From the NCBI RefSeq assembly GCF_001458695.1, contig NZ_LN885086.1, positions 1,830,001 through 1,862,000 of the forward strand: a stretch of 32,000 bases of DNA, in the 5' to 3' direction. Numbering within the stretch: the first letter of the stretch is position 1; the number at the start of each line of letters is the position of its first letter. The notes under the pieces were generated by a model. The model worked only from the letters and a program-made list of their open reading frames with translations, made no database searches and was not told the DNA's origin. Made by a program: the position numbers and the translations under genes. Origin of the DNA: Candidatus Nitrospira inopinata (GTDB lineage Bacteria; Nitrospirota; Nitrospiria; Nitrospirales; Nitrospiraceae). This document shows, one piece after another, positions 7,903 to 15,686 of this stretch.

Positions 7903-8973
7903 TCAGCGAGTGGGATCGGGTTTGTCCCCGCGATTGACGAGCAAGTTGGGCGGCGGGCCGATCGGCTCGAAGTTTTTTAGGAGCGGGACATCGTCTTTGC
8001 GCACCCACAGGACGTCGTGATTGTACGAACCCAGCGGCCCAGACCCGCCGGAGAACATCGCGCCGTCCGGGGTGAAGGTCCAGCACATGTCTTCCCCGGC
8101 CGTATTGATCGTGTCGCCGAGATTCAACGGCTCTTGCCATTCGCCTCGGGGATTCTGATAGGAGATCCACATGTCGTGCCCGCCCCGTGACCCCATGTCG
8201 GGGCGAGTGCTGGTGAAGATGAGGACCTTCCCGTCTTTCGACAGACCCGTCCAATGGAGGTGGTCGCGATAGGGGGAATTGATGCGCGGCCCCAGACTCT
8301 CCGGTTTCTGCCACACGCCGTTTTTCTTCTCGACCTTCCAGATATCGCTGTCCTGCGTGACGCCCGGCTGTTGATAGCTGAAATAAATGAGGCTGTCGGA
8401 GACGATGATCGGGCAATGTTCCTCGCCCGTGGGCGTATTGATGTGAGGGAGCTCCGGCACGTCGTTCCAGTTTCTGGCCGGTTGCCAGACCCCGTTGACT
8501 TTCTGCACGACGTAGAGGTCGCCGGTCGAAAGATTGCCCGGCTCGTATCTGGTGAAGTAAATGACGTTGCCGTCATCCGAGAGACTCGGTTCCAGCTCCC
8601 ACGCGGAGGTATTGATATTCGGCCCCACGGTCGGATCGATGCCCGGTCCCAAGTGAATCGGCGGTTGCCAGACCCCGTCCACGGAGTGGGACATCCAGAT
8701 GTCAAAATTATAAGGAACTCCCGGCGACGGGATACTTCCCTCACGGGCCGAGACGAAGATTGCCGTCTTCCCATCGGCGCTATAGGTGATTTCGATCTCG
8801 GCGTCCGGTGAGTTGATCGGCTCGCCCATACTCTTCGAGAGCGCGGAACTCGCATGCGTGTGCCCGCCGTGCGGCGTCTCCATGCCGGACATCGCGTGGG
8901 GAGCGGCGGGAGTCAGTACGAGGGTGAGCACCGCCACGATGCCGTACATTGAGCCAACGGTCTTTCTGTCCAT
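7903..8973 (-). CDS. Secreted TolB-like (PD40/WD40-like) beta-propeller protein
   Basis: Repeated motifs: P(I/E)NLG..INS...E..P.LS.DG..LYF, and DIW(M/K)...(V/K)NGVWQ.P. It has a signal-like N-terminus and a His-rich stretch, PHGGHTH. I chose ATG 8973 (GGAGGAGG just upstream) over the track's TTG 8988. Confidence 0.7.
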   Translation of the reverse strand: MDRKTVGSMYGIVAVLTLVLTPAAPHAMSGMETPHGGHTHASSALSKSMGEPINSPDAEIEITYSADGKTAIFVSAREGSIPSPGVPYNFDIWMSHSVDGVWQPPIHLGPGIDPTVGPNINTSAWELEPSLSDDGNVIYFTRYEPGNLSTGDLYVVQKVNGVWQPARNWNDVPELPHINTPTGEEHCPIIVSDSLIYFSYQQPGVTQDSDIWKVEKKNGVWQKPESLGPRINSPYRDHLHWTGLSKDGKVLIFTSTRPDMGSRGGHDMWISYQNPRGEWQEPLNLGDTINTAGEDMCWTFTPDGAMFSGGSGPLGSYNHDVLWVRKDDVPLLKNFEPIGPPPNLLVNRGDKPDPTR

Positions 8974-9025
8974 ACCTCCTCCATTCAAATCATGGTGCGA
9001 TGATTCATCCGGCCGCGCGCCAAGC

Positions 9026-9445
9026 TCAGATTTCTCCCCTGTTCACTTGCCGGACTCGTTCTGCCGGGATGCTGAGGGCGGCCAAGAGGTAGTCCTTCAA
9101 TTCGCTGCTGTAGGGCTGGGCGGCCAGGGCCCGCTGCATGCACAAGAGCCAGGCGTCTCGTTCTTCGTAGCCGATCGGAAAGCGCTTGTGCGCGCCGGGG
9201 ATACTGATCGGTCCGTAGTGTTGTTGAAATAGCTTCGGTCCTCCCAGCCAGCCGCAGAGGAAATAGGTCAGTTTTTTGCGCGACTCGGTGAGATCGGCGG
9301 GGTGCATGGCTCTGATGACCTGTGCTTCCGGCAGCCTCTCCATGTTGGCGTAAAATTCATCCACCAACTTGGTGATGCCTTCGAGTCCCCCCGCCGCCTG
9401 GTAGGGGGTAAGCGCGGCGTCGTTCTCTTGGTCGTGGCTGGTCAT
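9026..9445 (-). CDS. glbO: Group II truncated haemoglobin (trHbO-like)
   Basis: 139 aa. Typical 2-on-2 globin group II motifs are present: FY..M, LFLCGWLGGP..Y....G...(I/L)...H..F.I...E.D.WL.CM..AL. Confidence 0.8.
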   Translation of the reverse strand: MTSHDQENDAALTPYQAAGGLEGITKLVDEFYANMERLPEAQVIRAMHPADLTESRKKLTYFLCGWLGGPKLFQQHYGPISIPGAHKRFPIGYEERDAWLLCMQRALAAQPYSSELKDYLLAALSIPAERVRQVNRGEI

Positions 9446-9515
9446 GTGAATCCTTGGTCACGTGTGAAAAGAAATCTAAACCGCCGAATTAGCCTTGCTG
9501 TTTGAGGCGTCGCTC

Positions 9516-9751
9516 TTACTCATCGTGGGATCCGATCCATACCCAAATGAAATCCGACCCATCCTCAACGGCTAACGCCCGGTGATGAGGTCCGACCCTC
9601 GCAGACCACGGTTTGCCGATTTTTTGAAGTGGAGCAAAGGGTATGCGGGATTCTCTTGCAAGGGGTCAAAGTTGTGTCGAGCCATGTCCTGGACCGATTC
9701 CGGAAGATCCGCAAAGAAAGTCCAGAACCGAGGCGTTGTGCGGTGCCTCAC
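9516..9751 (-). pseudogene. RelE/ParE-superfamily-like toxin, disrupted by a 1-nt frameshift
   Basis: GTG 9751 overlaps the antitoxin stop (GTGA). Frame 1 reads VRHRTTPRFWTFFADLPESVQDMARHNFDPLQENPAYPLLHFKK. After the A6 run (T6 at 9620-9625 on the + strand) the family-typical continuation IGKPWSARVGPHHRALAVEDGSDFIWVWIGSHDE* sits in the -1 frame. The span is 236 nt, which is 237 minus 1. Confidence 0.7.
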
Positions 9752-9948
9752 AGGTCCTTGCGCATCCCTTTGGCTTTTGCATCGAGCGCTTCACGCACCA
9801 AGCAATCCAGCTTTCCAGCTATGGAGTCGGCCTCGATTTCCTTGCTCCAACGCCCCCAATCCTTTTCTGACAGCCATCGGCCAAGTTCGGCGAATTGTTC
9901 CGGAGAGAGTTGCTCGATTTCCGTTTCGAGTTCATCTATCGTTGCCAC
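9748..9948 (-). CDS. Small antitoxin-like protein (addiction-module component look-alike)
   Basis: 66 aa from GTG 9948, with AGGGGAGGG 6 nt upstream. The sequence VATIDELETEIEQLSPEQFAELGRWL...WSKEIEADSIAGKLDCLVREALDAKAKG resembles small antitoxins paired with RelE/ParE toxins. It has a 4-nt overlap with the downstream toxin. Confidence 0.65.
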   Translation of the reverse strand: MATIDELETEIEQLSPEQFAELGRWLSEKDWGRWSKEIEADSIAGKLDCLVREALDAKAKGMRKDL

Positions 9949-10376
9949 GGATTTCCCTCCCCTCACTGATCTGGACCGCCAATTCCTCGGCTTGCGACCG
10001 GGAGAGGATCATTCATCGTAGGCCTTCAACGGTATTCAACAGTAGGCCCCGCATCGCAACCGCTGCGCCATATCACTCAGGACTTTGGGAGGGAACCGCT
10101 CGTTATGAGATGAAGCTGACGAGTGGTCCGCAGGATGGAGGATAGAGGCGGAGCTCGTTGTTTTTGCCGTCGACTGTCAGGGGATTCACAGGGCGGCAGA
10201 TTGTCGAGTCGGGAAACAGAAAGGGCACAGTCATATTTGCTCCAGATAGTGATTCACTTCATGTAGCACAAAGCCAAACGTCCCCTTATTCTCTCCCTAC
10301 CCGAGTATCGATTACGCCATGCATCCATGGGCTCATCATGTTCTCACCGTGTGCTCCCGACCTCTCGAATTGTGTA

Positions 10377-10436
10377 GGCTAACGCTAAAGCTCAGCCGCG
10401 CCGCGTAGCGGCGTCGGCTGGAGCGCCTTGTTGGGC
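10377..10436 (-). repeat. attC recombination site (60 bp), top strand on minus
   Basis: The minus strand reads GCCCAAC-AAGGC-GCTCCAGCCGACGCCGC-TAC-GCGGCGCGGCTGAGC-TTTAGC-GTTAGCC. It has RYYYAAC and GTTRRRY-type ends and imperfect inner arms, with two extra bases (T and G on the + = bottom strand). The stop codon of the 591-aa ORF lies 10 nt upstream. Confidence 0.85.
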
Positions 10437-10446
10437 GACAATCCCG

Positions 10447-12222
10447 TCATGACATCCGCTTTTCTATGCTCTCAAGCTCGTCGGCGACTTGTGCGCACAC
10501 ATGATGGAAGTGATTGGCGAACGTTTCATGCTCCATCAAAGCATTCTGCGCCAACTGCTGGGCCTCGCTGCCGCCGGCATGCCCCTTGGCTTTTGAGCGC
10601 AAGAGCTGGACTGTTCGCAAGCCGGCCAGCCTCCCAACCCCCGTGCTGGACTTGCTCAGGAGCTTTTCGAGCAACGCTATTGTCTTGTCCTCCTTGGCGT
10701 ATGAAACTTGCCCTTCATCTAGTCGAGTTCGGATCACTTTTGTTTCAAAGCCCTCGATAACCAGCTTTGCAAGATCCATGAATACCTCAGCCCATTCATC
10801 GCGACTCTCCGTTAGAGGCGTATTCACACGCTTAAGCAGCATCTCATCCCGAAGTGTCCACCATGCAACCTTGTCGTCGTGCCAGCGCTGAACGATAGAT
10901 AAGACCTTCTGCAGCGGCTGTACGAAGTTCACAAACTCGCCCTCGAAATCATTGATGAAGGCGCGTTTGGAGATACTGGCTTTCGGTGGCTCGTTGTAGG
11001 AGAGCCAGTGCAGCTGCTCCTTGTACGGAAGGCGGCGCAGGTAGCAGATGTAAGCGTGTACCTGACCCGCTTCGTTAACGTCGATTGCTTCAAGGTGCCA
11101 CGCTGCCCGGCATGAGACATCACGATCGCTCACTGTGTACTTGTCACGATCTGCCTTGTACTTCAGTAGAACTTCCGGCCCGAAGAACGCGGGCGATAGT
11201 TCGAAAGGCAGTGTGTTTTCCTTGGCCTGAAAATAGTCCGTCGTGGCCGCCGGGTCAGTGGAGATTCCCGTCACGCGCTGATTGCGCCAATCGTAGGCGA
11301 TGAACTCGACGTACTGCTTGTTCTTCCTTCCGAACCATCGGTCCGTGATACCCGTGAAGATAGCTTCCGGAGAGCGACGAGGGCGGATGATCTGTACACC
11401 CCGCGTGTAGGCCGCATAGCTAGGCATGACTTGCCGGCGGTAGAAGAAATCGGGCGATTCGATGATTTCCTGCGTCGGCCCCTCTGACCAGCCGGAGAAT
11501 CCGGAGCGCCGCAGCAAAGTGAAATCAAACATCCTTACGAGCGAAGCGTTGGACGCCGCAAGGTACTCCTCCAGCGGCGCCCACTTAAAGGAGACGAGTG
11601 CCATATTGCTGGCCTTGTCCTCGCGGCTGGTCACGGAAACAACGGGCTCAAGATCACCAAGTTCATTGAAGCGGCAGTAGGCTCGCATTTCGGGACGCCA
11701 GTGGATGTCGGTCAGATGCGCGTACTCCTGATGGAGCTCGTGGTAGGTGCGGCCCGGCCCAGTCCAGCCTTCGAACGTTCGGACGAAGATCAACTGCATG
11801 GCATTTTTCAGCGTGTTGGTGCCTGTTCCGCTCAGGCCTCGTTCGACCCACACGCCCTCGCACCCACCCCCGGTCACATAGCTGGCGATTGACGTGAAAG
11901 GCTTGAAGCTCCATTGCATCAGGTCTTGCTGGTCAACAGGTGCGAGCCGGTCATTCGGAACGGCGACCGAGTGGATCAACGTGTATTCACCCGACGCGTG
12001 AATGACCAGTTCATCGGCGCGGGCGTTCTTGCGCAGGAAATCGAGATGCGCCTCAGCCTCTATCCACTCGGAAAAGGGTTTGGAATCCGCCGGTACTTCG
12101 TCGAGTCTAGTGATTGCCTCAATCAGCTTCTTGTGTTCGTAATTGTGCAACCATTCCCTCCTGTTACTCGGCCTCAATGTGCCTGGCGTCGGCGCTCCGC
12201 TTGAGCGAGGGGTTAGGGTCAC
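10447..12222 (-). CDS. Large hypothetical protein (567-591 aa), cassette B gene 2, with a C-terminal Rx5H (HEPN-like?) helical region
   Basis: Long uninterrupted ORF with balanced amino-acid composition, unlike the Arg/Pro-rich shadow ORFs. The track start GTG 12222 has no SD, whereas TTG 12150 has AGGAGG 6 nt upstream. I saw no Walker A, TM segment or known catalytic signature. The C-terminus contains LRTVQLLRSKAKGHAGG. Confidence 0.8.
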   Translation of the reverse strand: MTLTPRSSGAPTPGTLRPSNRREWLHNYEHKKLIEAITRLDEVPADSKPFSEWIEAEAHLDFLRKNARADELVIHASGEYTLIHSVAVPNDRLAPVDQQDLMQWSFKPFTSIASYVTGGGCEGVWVERGLSGTGTNTLKNAMQLIFVRTFEGWTGPGRTYHELHQEYAHLTDIHWRPEMRAYCRFNELGDLEPVVSVTSREDKASNMALVSFKWAPLEEYLAASNASLVRMFDFTLLRRSGFSGWSEGPTQEIIESPDFFYRRQVMPSYAAYTRGVQIIRPRRSPEAIFTGITDRWFGRKNKQYVEFIAYDWRNQRVTGISTDPAATTDYFQAKENTLPFELSPAFFGPEVLLKYKADRDKYTVSDRDVSCRAAWHLEAIDVNEAGQVHAYICYLRRLPYKEQLHWLSYNEPPKASISKRAFINDFEGEFVNFVQPLQKVLSIVQRWHDDKVAWWTLRDEMLLKRVNTPLTESRDEWAEVFMDLAKLVIEGFETKVIRTRLDEGQVSYAKEDKTIALLEKLLSKSSTGVGRLAGLRTVQLLRSKAKGHAGGSEAQQLAQNALMEHETFANHFHHVCAQVADELESIEKRMS

Positions 12223-12234
12223 CGTGTGCTCGTG

Positions 12235-12873
12235 CTATTGCGCTCGGAACAGGTGCTTTAGATAAGGACGGAGTTGGGGAAACTCCGTTCGAGCCTCTTC
12301 GAAGTAGTCTTCGTATTGCGGCATTGCATCAACCAAACGCGGCTTAAGCGCAAGCTGTGCGTCAAGTTGCTGCCGAAGATGTGCCTCTGTCATCGCGCCC
12401 ATCGACCAGTATCTCGAAGGACGAAGGAACGGCTCGCGGTTATCCCAAACACATCGAGCCAGATCCGTAAACATGAATCTCCCATCCTCGGCTGGTGGTT
12501 CGTCGTCGGGTAGCAAGATGGCCATGCGAACTGGCGCGTGGCCATCCGAGCGCGAGAACTCGCGCTCATCATCATTACTATAGTCATAGCGTCCATGAAT
12601 CAGCAAGCCGCTCGACGGACAGCGAACTAAGGCCTCATGCTCAATCTCACCGGCCATTCCTCCAAGAAATGGAAGATATAACCTTGGGACAGTTAGTCGG
12701 TATCTTGCAATCGGGTCACCGCGCTTTATCCAGGCGTAGTTCGTTCTGTCTCGGAGCCCAGTGAGCGCGCCTGAGTGACTGAACGTACCCCCAAAGACGG
12801 CTGGTACCAGGAGCATCTTCGTGCCGAGGGTGACCCCGGCTGGAACTTCGCCTCTGCGGTATTGCTCAGTCAT
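12235..12873 (-). CDS. Hypothetical protein (212 aa), cassette B gene 1
   Basis: ATG 12873 has AAGGAA 5 nt upstream. The stop is 12 nt (or 84 nt) ahead of the next ORF's start. No domain recognised. Confidence 0.75.
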   Translation of the reverse strand: MTEQYRRGEVPAGVTLGTKMLLVPAVFGGTFSHSGALTGLRDRTNYAWIKRGDPIARYRLTVPRLYLPFLGGMAGEIEHEALVRCPSSGLLIHGRYDYSNDDEREFSRSDGHAPVRMAILLPDDEPPAEDGRFMFTDLARCVWDNREPFLRPSRYWSMGAMTEAHLRQQLDAQLALKPRLVDAMPQYEDYFEEARTEFPQLRPYLKHLFRAQ

Positions 12874-12932
12874 GTCGGTTCCTTGGGGGAGGGTCGGGAA
12901 GCGGGTTGCTACGCGAGCCGTTAGTTCGTGAC

Positions 12933-12996
12933 GCCTAACGCTCCGGTTCAGCGGCGGGCCGCGCAGCGGACCGTCCGCTGCAACCGGTTGTTAGGC
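12933..12996 (-). repeat. attC recombination site (64 bp), top strand on minus
   Basis: The + strand reads GCCTAAC-GCTCC-GGTTCAGCGG...CCGCTGCAACC-GGTT-GTTAGGC. The 7-nt ends are perfect inverted repeats. The inner arms pair with one extra base in the right arm of the + strand. The 98-aa ORF stop lies 9 nt away. Confidence 0.85.
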
Positions 12997-13005
12997 TCCC
13001 TTCGT

Positions 13006-13302
13006 TCACGTCGTGTGCTTCTGCACCGTGAACGTGCGGTCGATGAATATGTTGACCTCCGCATCGATCGACCCGCCAACGCCTGACCAGAAGTGGATTC
13101 TGAGCCGATCTCCTTCGGCGGTCAGGTCCAAGGCTGTGTTATCAAGACCGAGATCGAGCATGCTGTTCAGCTCTGCCACGATCGCCCACAACCGTCGGTG
13201 GAGGAGGTCCCTCACTTCAGAACCAATCTGGTGCTCCAGAGGTCCGAGTTGAGCGTTCAGGATGGAGACACGCTGCAAGAGGTCGTCGAATCGACTTGTC
13301 AC
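13006..13302 (-). CDS. Hypothetical protein (98 aa), cassette A gene 2
   Basis: GTG 13302 overlaps the upstream stop codon (GTGA, 13299-13302), suggesting translational coupling. No domain recognised. Confidence 0.65.
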   Translation of the reverse strand: MTSRFDDLLQRVSILNAQLGPLEHQIGSEVRDLLHRRLWAIVAELNSMLDLGLDNTALDLTAEGDRLRIHFWSGVGGSIDAEVNIFIDRTFTVQKHTT

Positions 13303-13964
13303 GACGGCGGCGACTCCCGTGTGACCGTCTCTGCGGATGTGATCTTGCCGGCAGCCACCAAGCGTACCAACGGCCGCTGTTCAAGCACGACAGCGGAGAC
13401 AAGCTGTCGCGTTTCCTTCTTCGTGTAGCCGAGTTCCTGCGCCAGACCGACGAACTGCTTGGCAATCTCGACCTGCAGCTGCTGGTTCTCAAGTTCGCGG
13501 CGTTCATTCTCTAACGAACGCTGGCGCCTTGTGGACCAGTGCTCGATGAGCCGAACCAAGAGATCCTTCAGGTGACCGACGATCTCGCCGATCCCGACGA
13601 GGTCCTTGATGCCGGGGGAACCGTAAAGCACGCGCTGCACGACCAAGCGCTCGTCTGGCTCCAGCAGTTCGGAGGCGACTGCGAAGGGGACCTCGCCGCG
13701 GCCCAGCAGCGGGGCACGCCCGGAGCGGAGGACCGACGGGGGAGCCAGTCGTGCCCAGGTGCGGAGAGACCTGAGCGATCGGGGAAACGGGGGGAAAGGC
13801 GCGTCCATGTAGAAGTCGCGCAACTCACGAAGCTCCTCGATCTCCAAGGCGAGCGCGAAACGCAGCGCGTAGAGGCGATCGAGTGCGTTGAAGGACGTCG
13901 CGAACTCGCCCGCCTCCCAAGCGCCATCGATGCCAACTCGGAGTACCTGCCGTTCCTCGTTCAT
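13299..13964 (-). CDS. Hypothetical coiled-coil protein (221 aa), cassette A gene 1
   Basis: ATG 13964 is only 22 nt from the attC core, with AAGAGG upstream. There is a central heptad-like segment, RRQRSLENERRELENQQLQVEIAKQF. No domain recognised. Confidence 0.7.
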   Translation of the reverse strand: MNEERQVLRVGIDGAWEAGEFATSFNALDRLYALRFALALEIEELRELRDFYMDAPFPPFPRSLRSLRTWARLAPPSVLRSGRAPLLGRGEVPFAVASELLEPDERLVVQRVLYGSPGIKDLVGIGEIVGHLKDLLVRLIEHWSTRRQRSLENERRELENQQLQVEIAKQFVGLAQELGYTKKETRQLVSAVVLEQRPLVRLVAAGKITSAETVTRESPPS

Positions 13965-13986
13965 ACCGTTGATGCCTCTTTTTGGA

Positions 13987-14056
13987 GCCTAACGTTCGGG
14001 TTCAGCCGCATTGCGGAGCACAGCGGAACAACGTCGGCTGCAACCCGTTGTTAGCC
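13987..14056 (-). repeat. attC recombination site (70 bp), top strand on minus
   Basis: The + strand reads GCCTAAC-GTTCG-GGTTCAGCCG...CGGCTGCAACC-CGTT-GTTAGCC. It has the same architecture and the same side for the extra base as the attC at 12933-12996. Confidence 0.85.
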
Positions 14057-14138
14057 AGCCGGCGAAGACGGTATAGGCACTAACGTGCACGCACATATCG
14101 GCAGACCAGCGCACCCGTGCTTGCTTTAGCAGTCGATA

Positions 14139-14668
14139 TCAATTCGAACGGTATTGCTTTCCCGTTTGTGGTAAAGATCGTCTACCCCCGCCAAGAATCA
14201 TTGGCCCGATCGTCAGCAATAACTCATCGACAAGATCCGCAGCGAGCAACGACCGAACCATCATCGCGCTGCCGTACACATAGATGTAGCCCCCCGGCTG
14301 CGCCCGCAGGTCGGACACTTTTTGCAAGAAGTCATCACCACGGATGATCGTCGTAGGATGCCATGTGATGTCCTTTTCGCTGAGCGTGTTGGACACCACG
14401 TACTTCTGCACCTTGTTGATCCAGTCTGAGAACGGGTCTCCCGAGCGGCTTGGCCAAGCGGCGGCGGACGTTTGATAGGTGGGCGTCCATGCAAGAGCGC
14501 GTCACTCTGCTTGGCGAGGTCGTCAAACGTGCCGCCGATCACTTCTGGGTCAAAGTACTTCAAAAACCATCCGCCATGGGCAAAGTCGCCGTCCGTGTCT
14601 TCCTTCGCCCCACCTGGAGCCTGGACAACACCGTCCAAGCTGATGAATTCAGTGACTAGCGTCTTCAT
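14139..14668 (-). pseudogene. Dihydrofolate-reductase-like (RibD C-terminal domain family) gene with a 1-nt frameshift
   Basis: The first frame reads MKTLVTEFISLDGVVQAPGG...SDALLHGR. The family-typical continuation TYQTSAAAWPSRSGDPFSDWINKVQKYVVSNTL...YVYGSAMMVRSLLAADLVDELLLTIGPMILGGG is in another frame. The switch is at about 14479-14484 (a C run). The span is 530 nt, which is 531 minus 1. Confidence 0.75.
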
Positions 14669-14704
14669 GGGGTCTCTTGTTTATACGACTGTGGGATCTG
14701 TGCT

Positions 14705-14793
14705 GGCTAACTATTGAGTAGATTGGTCAGCCTATCCCCGCCAACCGGTTTCTTGGTTGCGGCCGATCCTAATAAGCGTTGCCCATACTTAGC
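14705..14793 (-). repeat. Degenerate attC-like imperfect palindrome
   Basis: GGCTAACTAT (14705-14714) pairs with ATACTTAGC (14785-14793). The inner arms ATTGGTCAGCC / GGCCGATCCTAAT pair with bulges. The spacers are non-canonical and one core reads CTTAGC rather than GTTAGC. Confidence 0.3.
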
Positions 14794-14861
14794 AAGACTT
14801 TTCTCACCCCTCTGGAGCCTGACAAACACCGCATGCTAGGTCAGCCTATCCCGGCGTGCCG

Positions 14862-15086
14862 TCACGGCTCTCCGCCCCGCCTGTCAGGGGGTGGATGGTC
14901 TATGTCCGAGGCGGTCAGCCGGGCTGTGGTTATGATGACGTATTGATGTCGGCGGGCAAATTCAAAAATGGCGCGATCGTCGAGCGCTCTGCCAGGGTGA
15001 TCGTGGATGTGGATGGCATCGTGTCCGCGTTCGCGCAGCCAACCAGCGAGGCCTGGTGGGAGGTTGGCGTCCACGAGAAATGTCAT
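14862..15086 (-). pseudogene. DUF5615-type (PIN-like, Mut7-C-related) toxin gene, probably 3'-truncated
   Basis: MTFLVDANLPPGLAGWLRERGHDAIHI...DDRAIFEFARRHQYVIIT matches the DUF5615 N-terminal pattern. The usual C-terminal third is missing (74 aa). The gene abuts a partial attC-arm copy. Confidence 0.55.
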
Positions 15087-15286
15087 GTGGCTTGTGCCGG
15101 CATGATCGTATGGTCCAAGTATGCAGCGGCGTAGGTGATCGCGGCTCGATCGTGATGGCGCAGATATTTCCATCCTTGTCGATATCGAGTTGAGTGTCTG
15201 CATCCAAATCTCTTGTCCCTGACACCGGTGCCGTTTTGAATTCGATGTCCAGTGGGTCGGTGTCGTTGAAAATGTTTGATTGTCAT
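15083..15286 (-). pseudogene. DUF2283-type antitoxin gene with internal frame disruption
   Basis: The ATG frame gives MTIKHF. The conserved core FNDTDPLDIEFKTAPVSGTRDLDADTQLDIDKDGNICAITIE is in a different frame, reached after a T4 run. The stop (ATGA overlap with the DUF5615 start) is back in the first frame. Confidence 0.6.
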
Positions 15287-15468
15287 GGCTTGAACCCTCG
15301 GTCGAAAAAGACATTGTGGACTGTTTCACGATCGGACAGTAATGCCACCAGCACGTATCTGTTTCCCATTTCTTTTATCGGGGCCCAGCGGCGGATGCGT
15401 CCGTCTTTCTGAACCGTTTCTCCACCGGGCTGACGGTTAGGAATGCCGGCCGGCGTGGTATGCCAACA
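15283..15468 (-). pseudogene. DUF4258-like toxin gene remnant, 5'-truncated
   Basis: An open frame without a start codon reads ...GETVQKDGRIRRWAPIKEMGNRYVLVALLSDRETVHNVFFDRGFKP*. Its stop overlaps the DUF2283 ATG (ATGA). The pattern matches the DUF4258 C-terminal half as I recall it. Confidence 0.5.
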
Positions 15469-15470
15469 TC

Positions 15471-15509
15471 ATCTGAAAAATGCATCTGAAAAATACGTCT
15501 GAAAAATAC
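15471..15509. repeat. Three tandem 13-nt repeats (ATCTGAAAAATGC / ATCTGAAAAATAC / GTCTGAAAAATAC)
   Basis: Read directly. The repeats abut the truncation point of the DUF4258-like remnant. Confidence 0.9.
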
Positions 15510-15686
15510 GGAGAGATTGTTGCGTGGCCTTCTTCGCCGGTCAATCTTCTTGCTGGTGTCACGGCGACGCGCGAACGAGAATGACTTCCTTGAATCAACA
15601 GGTGTCTATCGCGAAAACGAGGGAGAAAAGTATTTCATCTAAGCCGAGATGCGCCCATGGAAGGGGGGGGCTAGACGGATGAACGG

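Follow-up and report, generated by a model that had tools for sequence, protein, structure and literature searches.

The locus studied here raises the question of whether two genes that share one integron cassette also share a function. It lies in a stretch of 32,000 nucleotides (nt), hereafter the window, from Candidatus Nitrospira inopinata (contig NZ_LN885086.1, positions 1,830,001 to 1,862,000). In the window, two neighboring open reading frames (ORFs), encoding proteins of 212 and 567 amino acids (aa), are enclosed by a single pair of attC recombination sites. A first-pass annotation, made from the DNA letters alone, had proposed that this unusually large cassette carries a two-gene defense or conflict system. 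Our analysis indicates that the interval is very probably a fused (composite) cassette whose two genes do not constitute a two-gene system. As the best explanation overall, we moderately favor a fused cassette whose large gene encodes a self-contained conflict protein. Coordinates are positions in the window, and the genes are oriented on the minus strand.

Probable independence of the two genes and architecture of the interval

We evaluated whether the two genes occur together elsewhere, using 80 large-gene loci fetched from many phyla plus eight obtained earlier. When all 22 small-family sequences were used as tblastn queries, the small gene turned up beside the large one in L022 alone, a Nitrospira metagenome-assembled genome (MAG) that is 99% identical and belongs to the same lineage. 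The small gene was absent from the 79 other large-gene loci (35–87% identity, with flanks of up to 10 kb) and from seven later ones (86 in total), and the large gene was absent from all 18 small-gene loci. Furthermore, the two families differ about 60-fold in size (>1300 versus 21 clusters at 90% identity), and the clustering of 1629 neighbor ORFs from 88 loci revealed no conserved neighbor of the large gene. Co-occurrence of homologues had been set beforehand as the test of the pairing. Outside of a single lineage the homologues essentially never co-occur, and the proposal of one two-gene defense or conflict system is not supported.

Each gene is found elsewhere as a single-gene cassette with an attC of its own. 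In six loci with large-gene homologues at 72–87% identity, the stop codon is followed, 9–10 nt on, by the same attC as in the window. These loci belong to Truepera radiovictrix, two Acidobacteria, a gammaproteobacterium, another Nitrospira, and a metagenome contig, for a total of four phyla. In Truepera, an integrase fragment precedes the large gene by about 240 nt, and DUF2442/DUF4160 and HigB/helix-turn-helix (HTH) cassettes come after it. Small-family genes lie between attCs in L104 and L105, where they are part of a textbook array of small co-directional genes, and adjoin attCs in L017, L018, and L019; the remaining members are chromosomal or on Alteromonas plasmids, and the large gene is absent in each case. 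The size of the interval is therefore better explained by the fusion of two cassettes than by a multigene system.

A genuine two-component defense or toxin-antitoxin (TA)-like system, in which the 567-aa protein would have the 212-aa one as its sensor, regulator, or antitoxin, is consequently very unlikely. It would agree with two intact, co-directional genes 85 nt apart, each with a Shine-Dalgarno sequence, with the conservation of this arrangement in the second Nitrospira assembly (L022), and with the plausibility of multigene cassettes as carriers of defense systems. This agreement is outweighed by the lack of co-occurrence outside the lineage, by the disparity in family size, and by the fact that the large gene stands alone nearly everywhere and needs no partner; in addition, both families are single-gene cassettes with their own attC in other genomes, and the spacer of the window holds half an attC.

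The description of the interval in the first-pass annotation proved accurate. It is one clean and unusually large cassette of 2556 base pairs (bp; 10383-12938), bounded by two good attCs, with exact coordinates and both ends at G/TT crossover points. Both sites present the features expected of a cassette boundary: inverted R'' (RYYYAAC) and R' (GTTRRRY) boxes and a stable imperfect hairpin. The GCCTAAC-N-GTTAGGC pattern of the upstream site has one match in the window, against 0.00 expected; as single-stranded DNA this site folds at −29.3 kcal/mol (z = −7.8 versus dinucleotide shuffles), and the downstream site at −20 kcal/mol (z = −3.9). The two ORFs are intact and co-directional, each preceded by a Shine-Dalgarno sequence (AAGGAA and AGGAGG). 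The argument that selection keeps them intact also stands: both families are under purifying selection, with a ratio of nonsynonymous to synonymous substitution rates (dN/dS) of 0.17–0.23 (about 0.18) for the large gene and of 0.077 for the small gene, the latter versus a 75%-identical homologue. The features are collected in Table 1.

The attC calls rest on direct reading, folding, and cross-locus alignment. Three home-made attC scanners were dropped: one found 12933-12996 only, a second missed the downstream attC of the window, and a third produced many false positives in GC-rich DNA.

Table 1. Features of the fused cassette and its borders, in order of transcription (positions in the window)
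Feature	Position	Strand	Details
Upstream (5') attC	12933..12996	(-)	GCCTAAC...GTTAGGC; R' box GTTAGGC ends 12933; cassette start 12938
Small ORF	12235..12873	(-)	212 aa, ATG; AAGGAA Shine-Dalgarno 6 nt upstream
13-nt word GAGCACACGGTGA	12219..12231 and 10344..10356	(-)	two exact copies versus 0.07 expected (<=1 mismatch)
Probable remnant of the small gene's own attC	12197..12218	(-)	R''-like CCCTAAC and L''-like CCCTCGCTCAAGCGG; L'/R' half absent
Large-gene cassette leader, 3' part	12151..12192	(-)	AGGAGG Shine-Dalgarno at 12157-12162, ahead of TTG
Large ORF	10447..12150	(-)	567 aa from TTG; stop codon 10447-10449; AGGAGG upstream; C-terminal R518-x5-H524
Downstream attC of the large gene	10377..10436	(-)	GCCCAAC...GTTAGCC; cassette end 10383 (G of G/TT)

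The spacer between the two genes

The trace of the fusion should be found in the 85 nt between the TAG stop of the small ORF and the TTG start of the large gene, which read cac GAGCACACGGTGA CCCTAAC CCCTCGCTCAAGCGG AGCGCCGACGCCAGGCACATTGAGGCCGAGTAACAGGAGGGAATGG. The CCCTAAC box and the 15 nt that follow it resemble the 5' (R''/L'') half of the attC behind the small-family cassette in L104, GCCTAAC CCTTCGCTCGAGCGG. The last ~40 nt align with the leaders of large-gene cassettes from Truepera, Acidobacteria, the gammaproteobacterium, and others (consensus ..atcgaggtcgagtgacaggagag..TTG). In those other large-gene cassettes, an R' box (GTTRRRY) lies 62–65 nt upstream of the start codon and is followed by the leader; the spacer of the window has no GTTRRRY box. 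No hairpin stability was detected in the 87-nt segment formed by the spacer and two stop-codon bases (z = +0.8 and +0.6 versus shuffles), in contrast with the flanking attCs (z = −7.8 and −3.9). Fused cassettes that arose through partial or total loss of an attC are rare but documented (PMC4670013).

From this anatomy we infer an order of events. Two unrelated single-gene cassettes would have inserted side by side. A deletion would then have removed the 3' half of the attC of the first cassette together with the first ~25 nt of the leader of the second one. After this deletion, the pair could move, or stay, solely as one 2.5-kb unit.

Three points weigh against this reconstruction of the spacer. 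The exact fusing deletion is not reconstructable; MAFFT also aligns the stretch right after the small-ORF stop with the 5' leader of other cassettes; and the direct repeat of the word GAGCACACGGTGA fits no mechanism that we identified. The first copy of this word lies just past the small-ORF stop and the second ~20 nt beyond the attC of the large gene, and together they bracket the large gene and its attC; in L022, the downstream copy carries one mismatch. The repeat may be a trace of cassette joining or insertion.

We also considered the spacer as a degenerate full attC (CCCTAAC...TTGAGGCCGAG TAACAGG, read as R''-L''...L'-R') and discarded this candidate for two reasons: what would be its L'/R' arm corresponds to the leader that large-gene cassettes of other phyla conserve, in which the true R' box stands 62–65 nt before the start, and the spacer lacks hairpin stability.

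That the spacer is a working non-canonical recombination site, and the interval two separate cassettes looking like one, is the least probable alternative: integrons with unusual recombination sites are known (PMC12901181), and the spacer does hold the R''-like CCCTAAC, an L''/L'-like inverted pair (CTCGCTCAA / TTGAGGCCGAG), and a GTTGCAC overlapping the start codon at one mismatch from GTTRRRY, but its R'' and putative R' boxes are complementary in AAC/GTT alone, its folding falls far from that of the true attCs, and its 3' arm is a leader kept in all cassette copies, which have the real R' box further upstream. The fused cassette thus remains the reading that we retain for the interval.

A side observation concerns the leader itself. 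About 30–60 nt before the large-gene start, a small conserved inverted repeat is present in L001, L024, L025, and L027 (e.g., gcgtgaacacaagcgttattacgc in Truepera and gcgagagcacgcgtttttgcgc in an acidobacterium), and might form a regulatory hairpin. This part of the leader is missing from the copy in the window.

The large gene as a candidate defense gene

The large gene was also investigated on its own. Its product matches an NCBI "hypothetical protein" of Candidatus Nitrospira inopinata at 100% identity. The same frame is open from a GTG at 12222 (591 aa, 10447-12222), and the homologues all start at the position of the TTG at 12150. A TTG start is present in 26 of the 56 loci with an alignable residue 1, and in most members with at least 57% identity, a frequency that fits a deliberately weak translation. 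The family is very large, with >1302 clusters at 90% identity and 1821 clusters at 50% identity (E <= 1e-3), and its full-length members are nearly all 550–590 aa long. The extreme N-terminus is the least conserved part: BLAST aligns residues ~296–564 with relatives from Rhodococcus and 119–564 with that from P. syringae, and the family profile extends back to ~103–135 in plasmid relatives.

The statement that neither protein has a recognizable domain was borne out, as Pfam, PADLOC, NCBIfam, PHROGs, and PDB all lacked a meaningful match. More precisely, the 567-aa protein has zero matches at E <= 1 in Pfam, PADLOC, and NCBIfam and none among PDB sequences, and the PHROGs search with the window proteins returned one meaningless match. 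Among 54 diverse members of the large family (28–55% identity), no Pfam, PADLOC, or NCBIfam family was found apart from one fused TIR domain (protein P0238). The profile built on these members had zero matches to PDB sequences, and Pfam found nothing in four distant plasmid relatives. The family is also almost missing from viruses: it had zero matches in 50,697 phage records and was present in one of 2.9 million IMG/VR contigs. This sole contig (L113, 27.8 kb) encodes, at 8001-9698, a family member with 57% identity.

The dS (synonymous divergence) of the large gene is low between phyla: 0.36 versus Truepera (Deinococcota), 0.41 versus the gammaproteobacterium, and 0.53–0.56 versus the Acidobacteria (loci L001, L023, L024, and L027). 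These values imply a recent transfer of the gene + attC unit between phyla.

The neighborhoods of the family are variable regions that contain many mobile genes and genes linked to conflict and defense. They include type I HsdR/HsdS, type III, and type ISP restriction-modification (RM) enzymes, SNF2-PLD proteins, and DNA methylases, as well as the MADS genes mad2/mad3, AriA-like AAA_15/21 proteins, Fic, HicB, P4-type integrases, and SEC-C proteins. On the P. aeruginosa megaplasmid pWTJH6, a family gene (31.6% identity, full length) lies ~550 bp from an operon of the cyclic-oligonucleotide-based antiphage signaling system (CBASS), composed of SAVED, nucleotidyltransferase, ThiF, MPN, and exonuclease genes. 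On the P. syringae plasmid pPma4326F, gmtY-gmtZ-gmtX mark a GMT island, and the first cargo gene behind them encodes a 526-aa relative (hmmsearch 7e-62); the cargo of these islands is reported to be rich in defense systems (bioRxiv 10.1101/2023.03.28.534373). Relatives on Rhodococcus plasmids adjoin Phd/RelE and RES modules.

In two proteins, P0238 and P0292 (70% identical to each other), an N-terminal ThsB1-like TIR domain (PADLOC ThsB1, 6.9e-56) is fused to the family body; among close relatives of P0238, the TIR is present in 2/120. The islands that host the two fusions contain, in one case, a second TIR protein and a SACS/NOV_C giant and, in the other, an OLD-like nuclease, UvrD, an N6_N4 methylase, and GmrSD_N (loci L109/L110). 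In these two loci (L109 6764-9573, L110 7477-10289), the TIR-fused gene is preceded, 17–20 nt upstream, by an ORF of 167–168 aa without Pfam domains, perhaps encoding a partner that the TIR variant alone possesses.

On the basis of these contexts, we give roughly even chances to the 567-aa gene being a stand-alone defense or abortive-infection effector. The earlier proposal of a defense candidate survives in part: the large gene is circumstantially tied to conflict and defense loci, and the pairing with the small gene is not retained.

Several observations count against a defense function. The association of the large family with defense is circumstantial, and many loci have ordinary housekeeping neighbors, in neighborhoods that are heterogeneous. 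The integron-borne clade is 72–88% identical over the whole length, which fits a recent transfer and is unlike fast-evolving sensors. As to expression in the host, no sigma-70-like promoter was found in the cassette.

Two other functions could be proposed for the large gene. The protein could have an ordinary accessory role, as an enzyme or a binding protein (e.g., one that modifies nucleic acids or small molecules), and hitch-hike on mobile elements, with its defense-like surroundings being integration hot spots. The strong whole-length conservation (dN/dS about 0.18), the numerous housekeeping neighbors, and the lack of detectable similarity to any defense family speak for this possibility. 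Nonetheless, we consider it unlikely: a ThsB-like TIR is fused to two diverged proteins inside defense islands, one relative heads the cargo of a GMT island, CBASS lies beside another copy, the distribution as a cassette is patchy across phyla, and weak TTG starts are frequent.

Less probable still is an addiction or stabilization element, i.e., a toxin-like protein acting on its own that would harm the cell when lost or deregulated, which would account for the stabilization of arrays and islands and for the spread of the gene. Coherently with it, the large gene travels with TA cassettes (HigB/HTH in Truepera, Phd/RelE and RES on Rhodococcus plasmids), the TTG start and the conserved leader suggest a tightly limited expression, and the protein has a possible HEPN-like motif typical of toxins. 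Against it, there is no conserved cognate antitoxin gene beside the large gene, and RM, CBASS, TIR, or OLD-type immunity neighbors are commoner than TA modules.

Returning to the defense reading, the conservation of the protein offers an indication of how such an effector could work. Across the 54 diverse members, R518 is invariant and H524 is conserved in at least 90%; further invariant or near-invariant polar residues include D287, D334, K337, R348, N359, Q363, E378/Q379, E466, and H547. The R-x5-H motif is retained in distant relatives, as LRNEIRGH, VRSSGVAH, and IRSAGSAH, and falls in a region (residues 410–567) predicted to be helical with a predicted local distance difference test score (pLDDT) of about 75–90. 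Foldseek on the model placed the HEPN toxin-system entries 7bxo_G/H and 7ae6_A in the top 28 of 350,542 PDB chains. This suggests, tentatively, that the large protein could be a HEPN-type RNase effector, an idea that we hold as a minority possibility.

It has to be considered that the model is poor, with a pLDDT of 62.9 overall and <50 over the most conserved region (267–410), because it was built from an alignment limited to homologues with at least 72% identity. Moreover, Foldseek on this model yielded no significant match to any fold, those to HEPN entries being non-significant as well (E 0.4–2.3, template-modeling score 0.30–0.45), and no HEPN profile match was obtained in the Pfam, NCBIfam, and PDB searches for 58 family members.

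In the mechanism that we envisage, the variable N-terminal part (~290 residues) would be a sensor or regulator, and the conserved central and C-terminal module would be the effector, most likely a HEPN-like RNase centered on R-x5-H. The weak TTG start would keep basal expression low.

Three further arrangements were observed around the large gene. A recurrent cluster in L006-L008, L028, and L029 (a spirochaete, Syntrophobacterales, and related uncultured-bacterium contigs) associates it with radical-SAM/SPASM genes, a DUF6375 protein, and a domainless 1345-aa protein. A domainless 266-aa protein is encoded 15 nt downstream of the large gene in the sphingomonad/alphaproteobacterial loci L049, L051, L054, and L079, and a SEC-C-motif protein (~340–460 aa) stands directly beside it in L023, L038, and L042.

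Known systems, the small gene, and the rest of the array

The interval can be compared with the fused cassettes already described (PMC4670013). As in those cases, two ORFs lie between functional-looking attCs, with an internal half-site, and each gene has its own cassette elsewhere. The published examples come mostly from class 1 mobile integrons and carry resistance genes; the present interval lies on the chromosome of a nitrifier, in an array that apparently has no integrase, and unites two genes without a known function, with the ORFs themselves unfused.

Among defense genes, the closest parallels by architecture are single-gene cassettes. Taranis (AbiJ-like) and Esos are HEPN-type defense cassettes of this kind from the V. 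cholerae superintegron (bioRxiv 10.1101/2024.07.02.601686). Compared by description only, they share with the large protein the stand-alone cassette setting, an N-terminus that varies, and an R-x(4-6)-H motif within a helical C-terminal domain. They differ in that the large protein has no Abi_C/HEPN profile match and belongs to a family that is far larger and extends over many phyla.

A likeness in size also exists with ApeA-type proteins: the large protein shares with them a length of ~570–600 aa, a solo gene, residence in defense islands, and a putative C-terminal HEPN-like motif. ApeA, reportedly presented by Gao and co-workers in 2020, is said to be a single-protein HEPN abortive-infection system. 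ApeA-type models are included in PADLOC, yet neither the window protein nor the 54 members had a PADLOC match, bar the fused TIR.

A third term of comparison is GAPS2 (WP_174208646.1), a GMT-island single-protein defense with no known domain (bioRxiv 10.1101/2023.03.28.534373). It resembles the large protein in being a solo protein without detectable domains, and a GMT island has a distant member of our family at the head of its cargo. With the family hidden Markov model, no similarity was seen for residues 1–126 of GAPS2 (score −2), nor for N-terminal fragments of GAPS7, 8, 9, 12, and 13. No GAPS2 homologue was found in the plasmid collection. As regards Thoeris, a ThsB-like TIR is present in P0238 and P0292, whereas the window protein and almost all its relatives have none, and no ThsA-like partner was noted in the two fusion loci. 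More generally, the window proteins match no named or candidate system in PADLOC-DB v2.0.0 (E <= 1).

Taken together, these comparisons suggest that the locus is of a known kind, a fused integron cassette, and that its large gene is a cassette-borne candidate defense gene for which no membership of a named system was detected. It is conceivable, at a little less than even odds, that the ~570-aa family represents an undescribed and widespread single-protein abortive-infection system, with a new HEPN-like effector module, that spreads between phyla as a self-contained cassette complete with attC and leader, and of which the Nitrospira locus would be one fused copy. If the large gene were an immunity gene, a common single-gene system would be added to the defense catalogue, and integron cassettes would prove to be vehicles of defense genes well outside Vibrio and clinical integrons, reaching nitrifiers, Deinococcota, and Acidobacteria. 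Independently of this, the 567-aa gene exposes a very large family outside Pfam, NCBIfam, PADLOC, PHROGs, and PDB. As a caution for scans of integron arrays, a large multi-ORF cassette alone is no evidence for a multigene system.

The small gene appears to be an independent orphan cassette gene, with no evident tie to the large protein. Its 212-aa product had zero matches at E <= 1 in Pfam, PADLOC, and NCBIfam, no meaningful one in PHROGs, and none among PDB sequences, and its family consists of 21 homologous clusters (90% identity), none with Pfam domains. The AlphaFold2 model (pLDDT 88, predicted template-modeling score 0.84) is rich in beta structure in its N-terminal half and helical in its C-terminal half; the conserved motifs of the alignment are W48xxRGD and SPxSGL in the former and LLPDDEP and LRPYLKHL in the latter. 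No fold match was found at E <= 0.001 in PDB or BFVD. The weak matches were to CusB, the RpoB flap, and a lipoyl domain (2dne), a hint that the N-terminal half might have a barrel-sandwich/lipoyl-like element. In L106 (13420-13563), the C-terminal helical region of the small-family protein P0126 weakly matches, over 53 aa and with 36% identity, a stretch inside the CD-NTase gene of the P. aeruginosa CBASS operon; as the E-value of 6e-4 refers to a very small database, this was judged to be probably due to chance.

The cassette belongs to an attC array at ~9500-15600, flanked by a bacterial globin gene and gcvT. A third attC of the array lies at 13987-14056. No integrase domain was found among the 20 larger window ORFs scanned, which are not all the ORFs, and the array is apparently an attC cluster without integrase. 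The first-pass annotation had identified the neighbors of the cassette as TA modules, and this is weakly supported. At 9572-9966 on the minus strand, two overlapping ORFs of 59 and 72 aa have no Pfam match (E < 0.01), and the 59-aa one resembles by eye a truncated RelE/ParE-type toxin. The 155-aa ORF at 14862-15329, on the minus strand, alone has a match, to DUF5615/PIN_10, confined to residues 82–135. The next cassette (13006-13964, minus strand), between the attCs at 12933-12996 and 13987-14056, contains a 221-aa ORF followed by a 98-aa one, neither with a Pfam match. Their coding regions overlap by 4 nt, and this translational coupling makes the pair more credible as a genuine two-gene module than the genes studied here.

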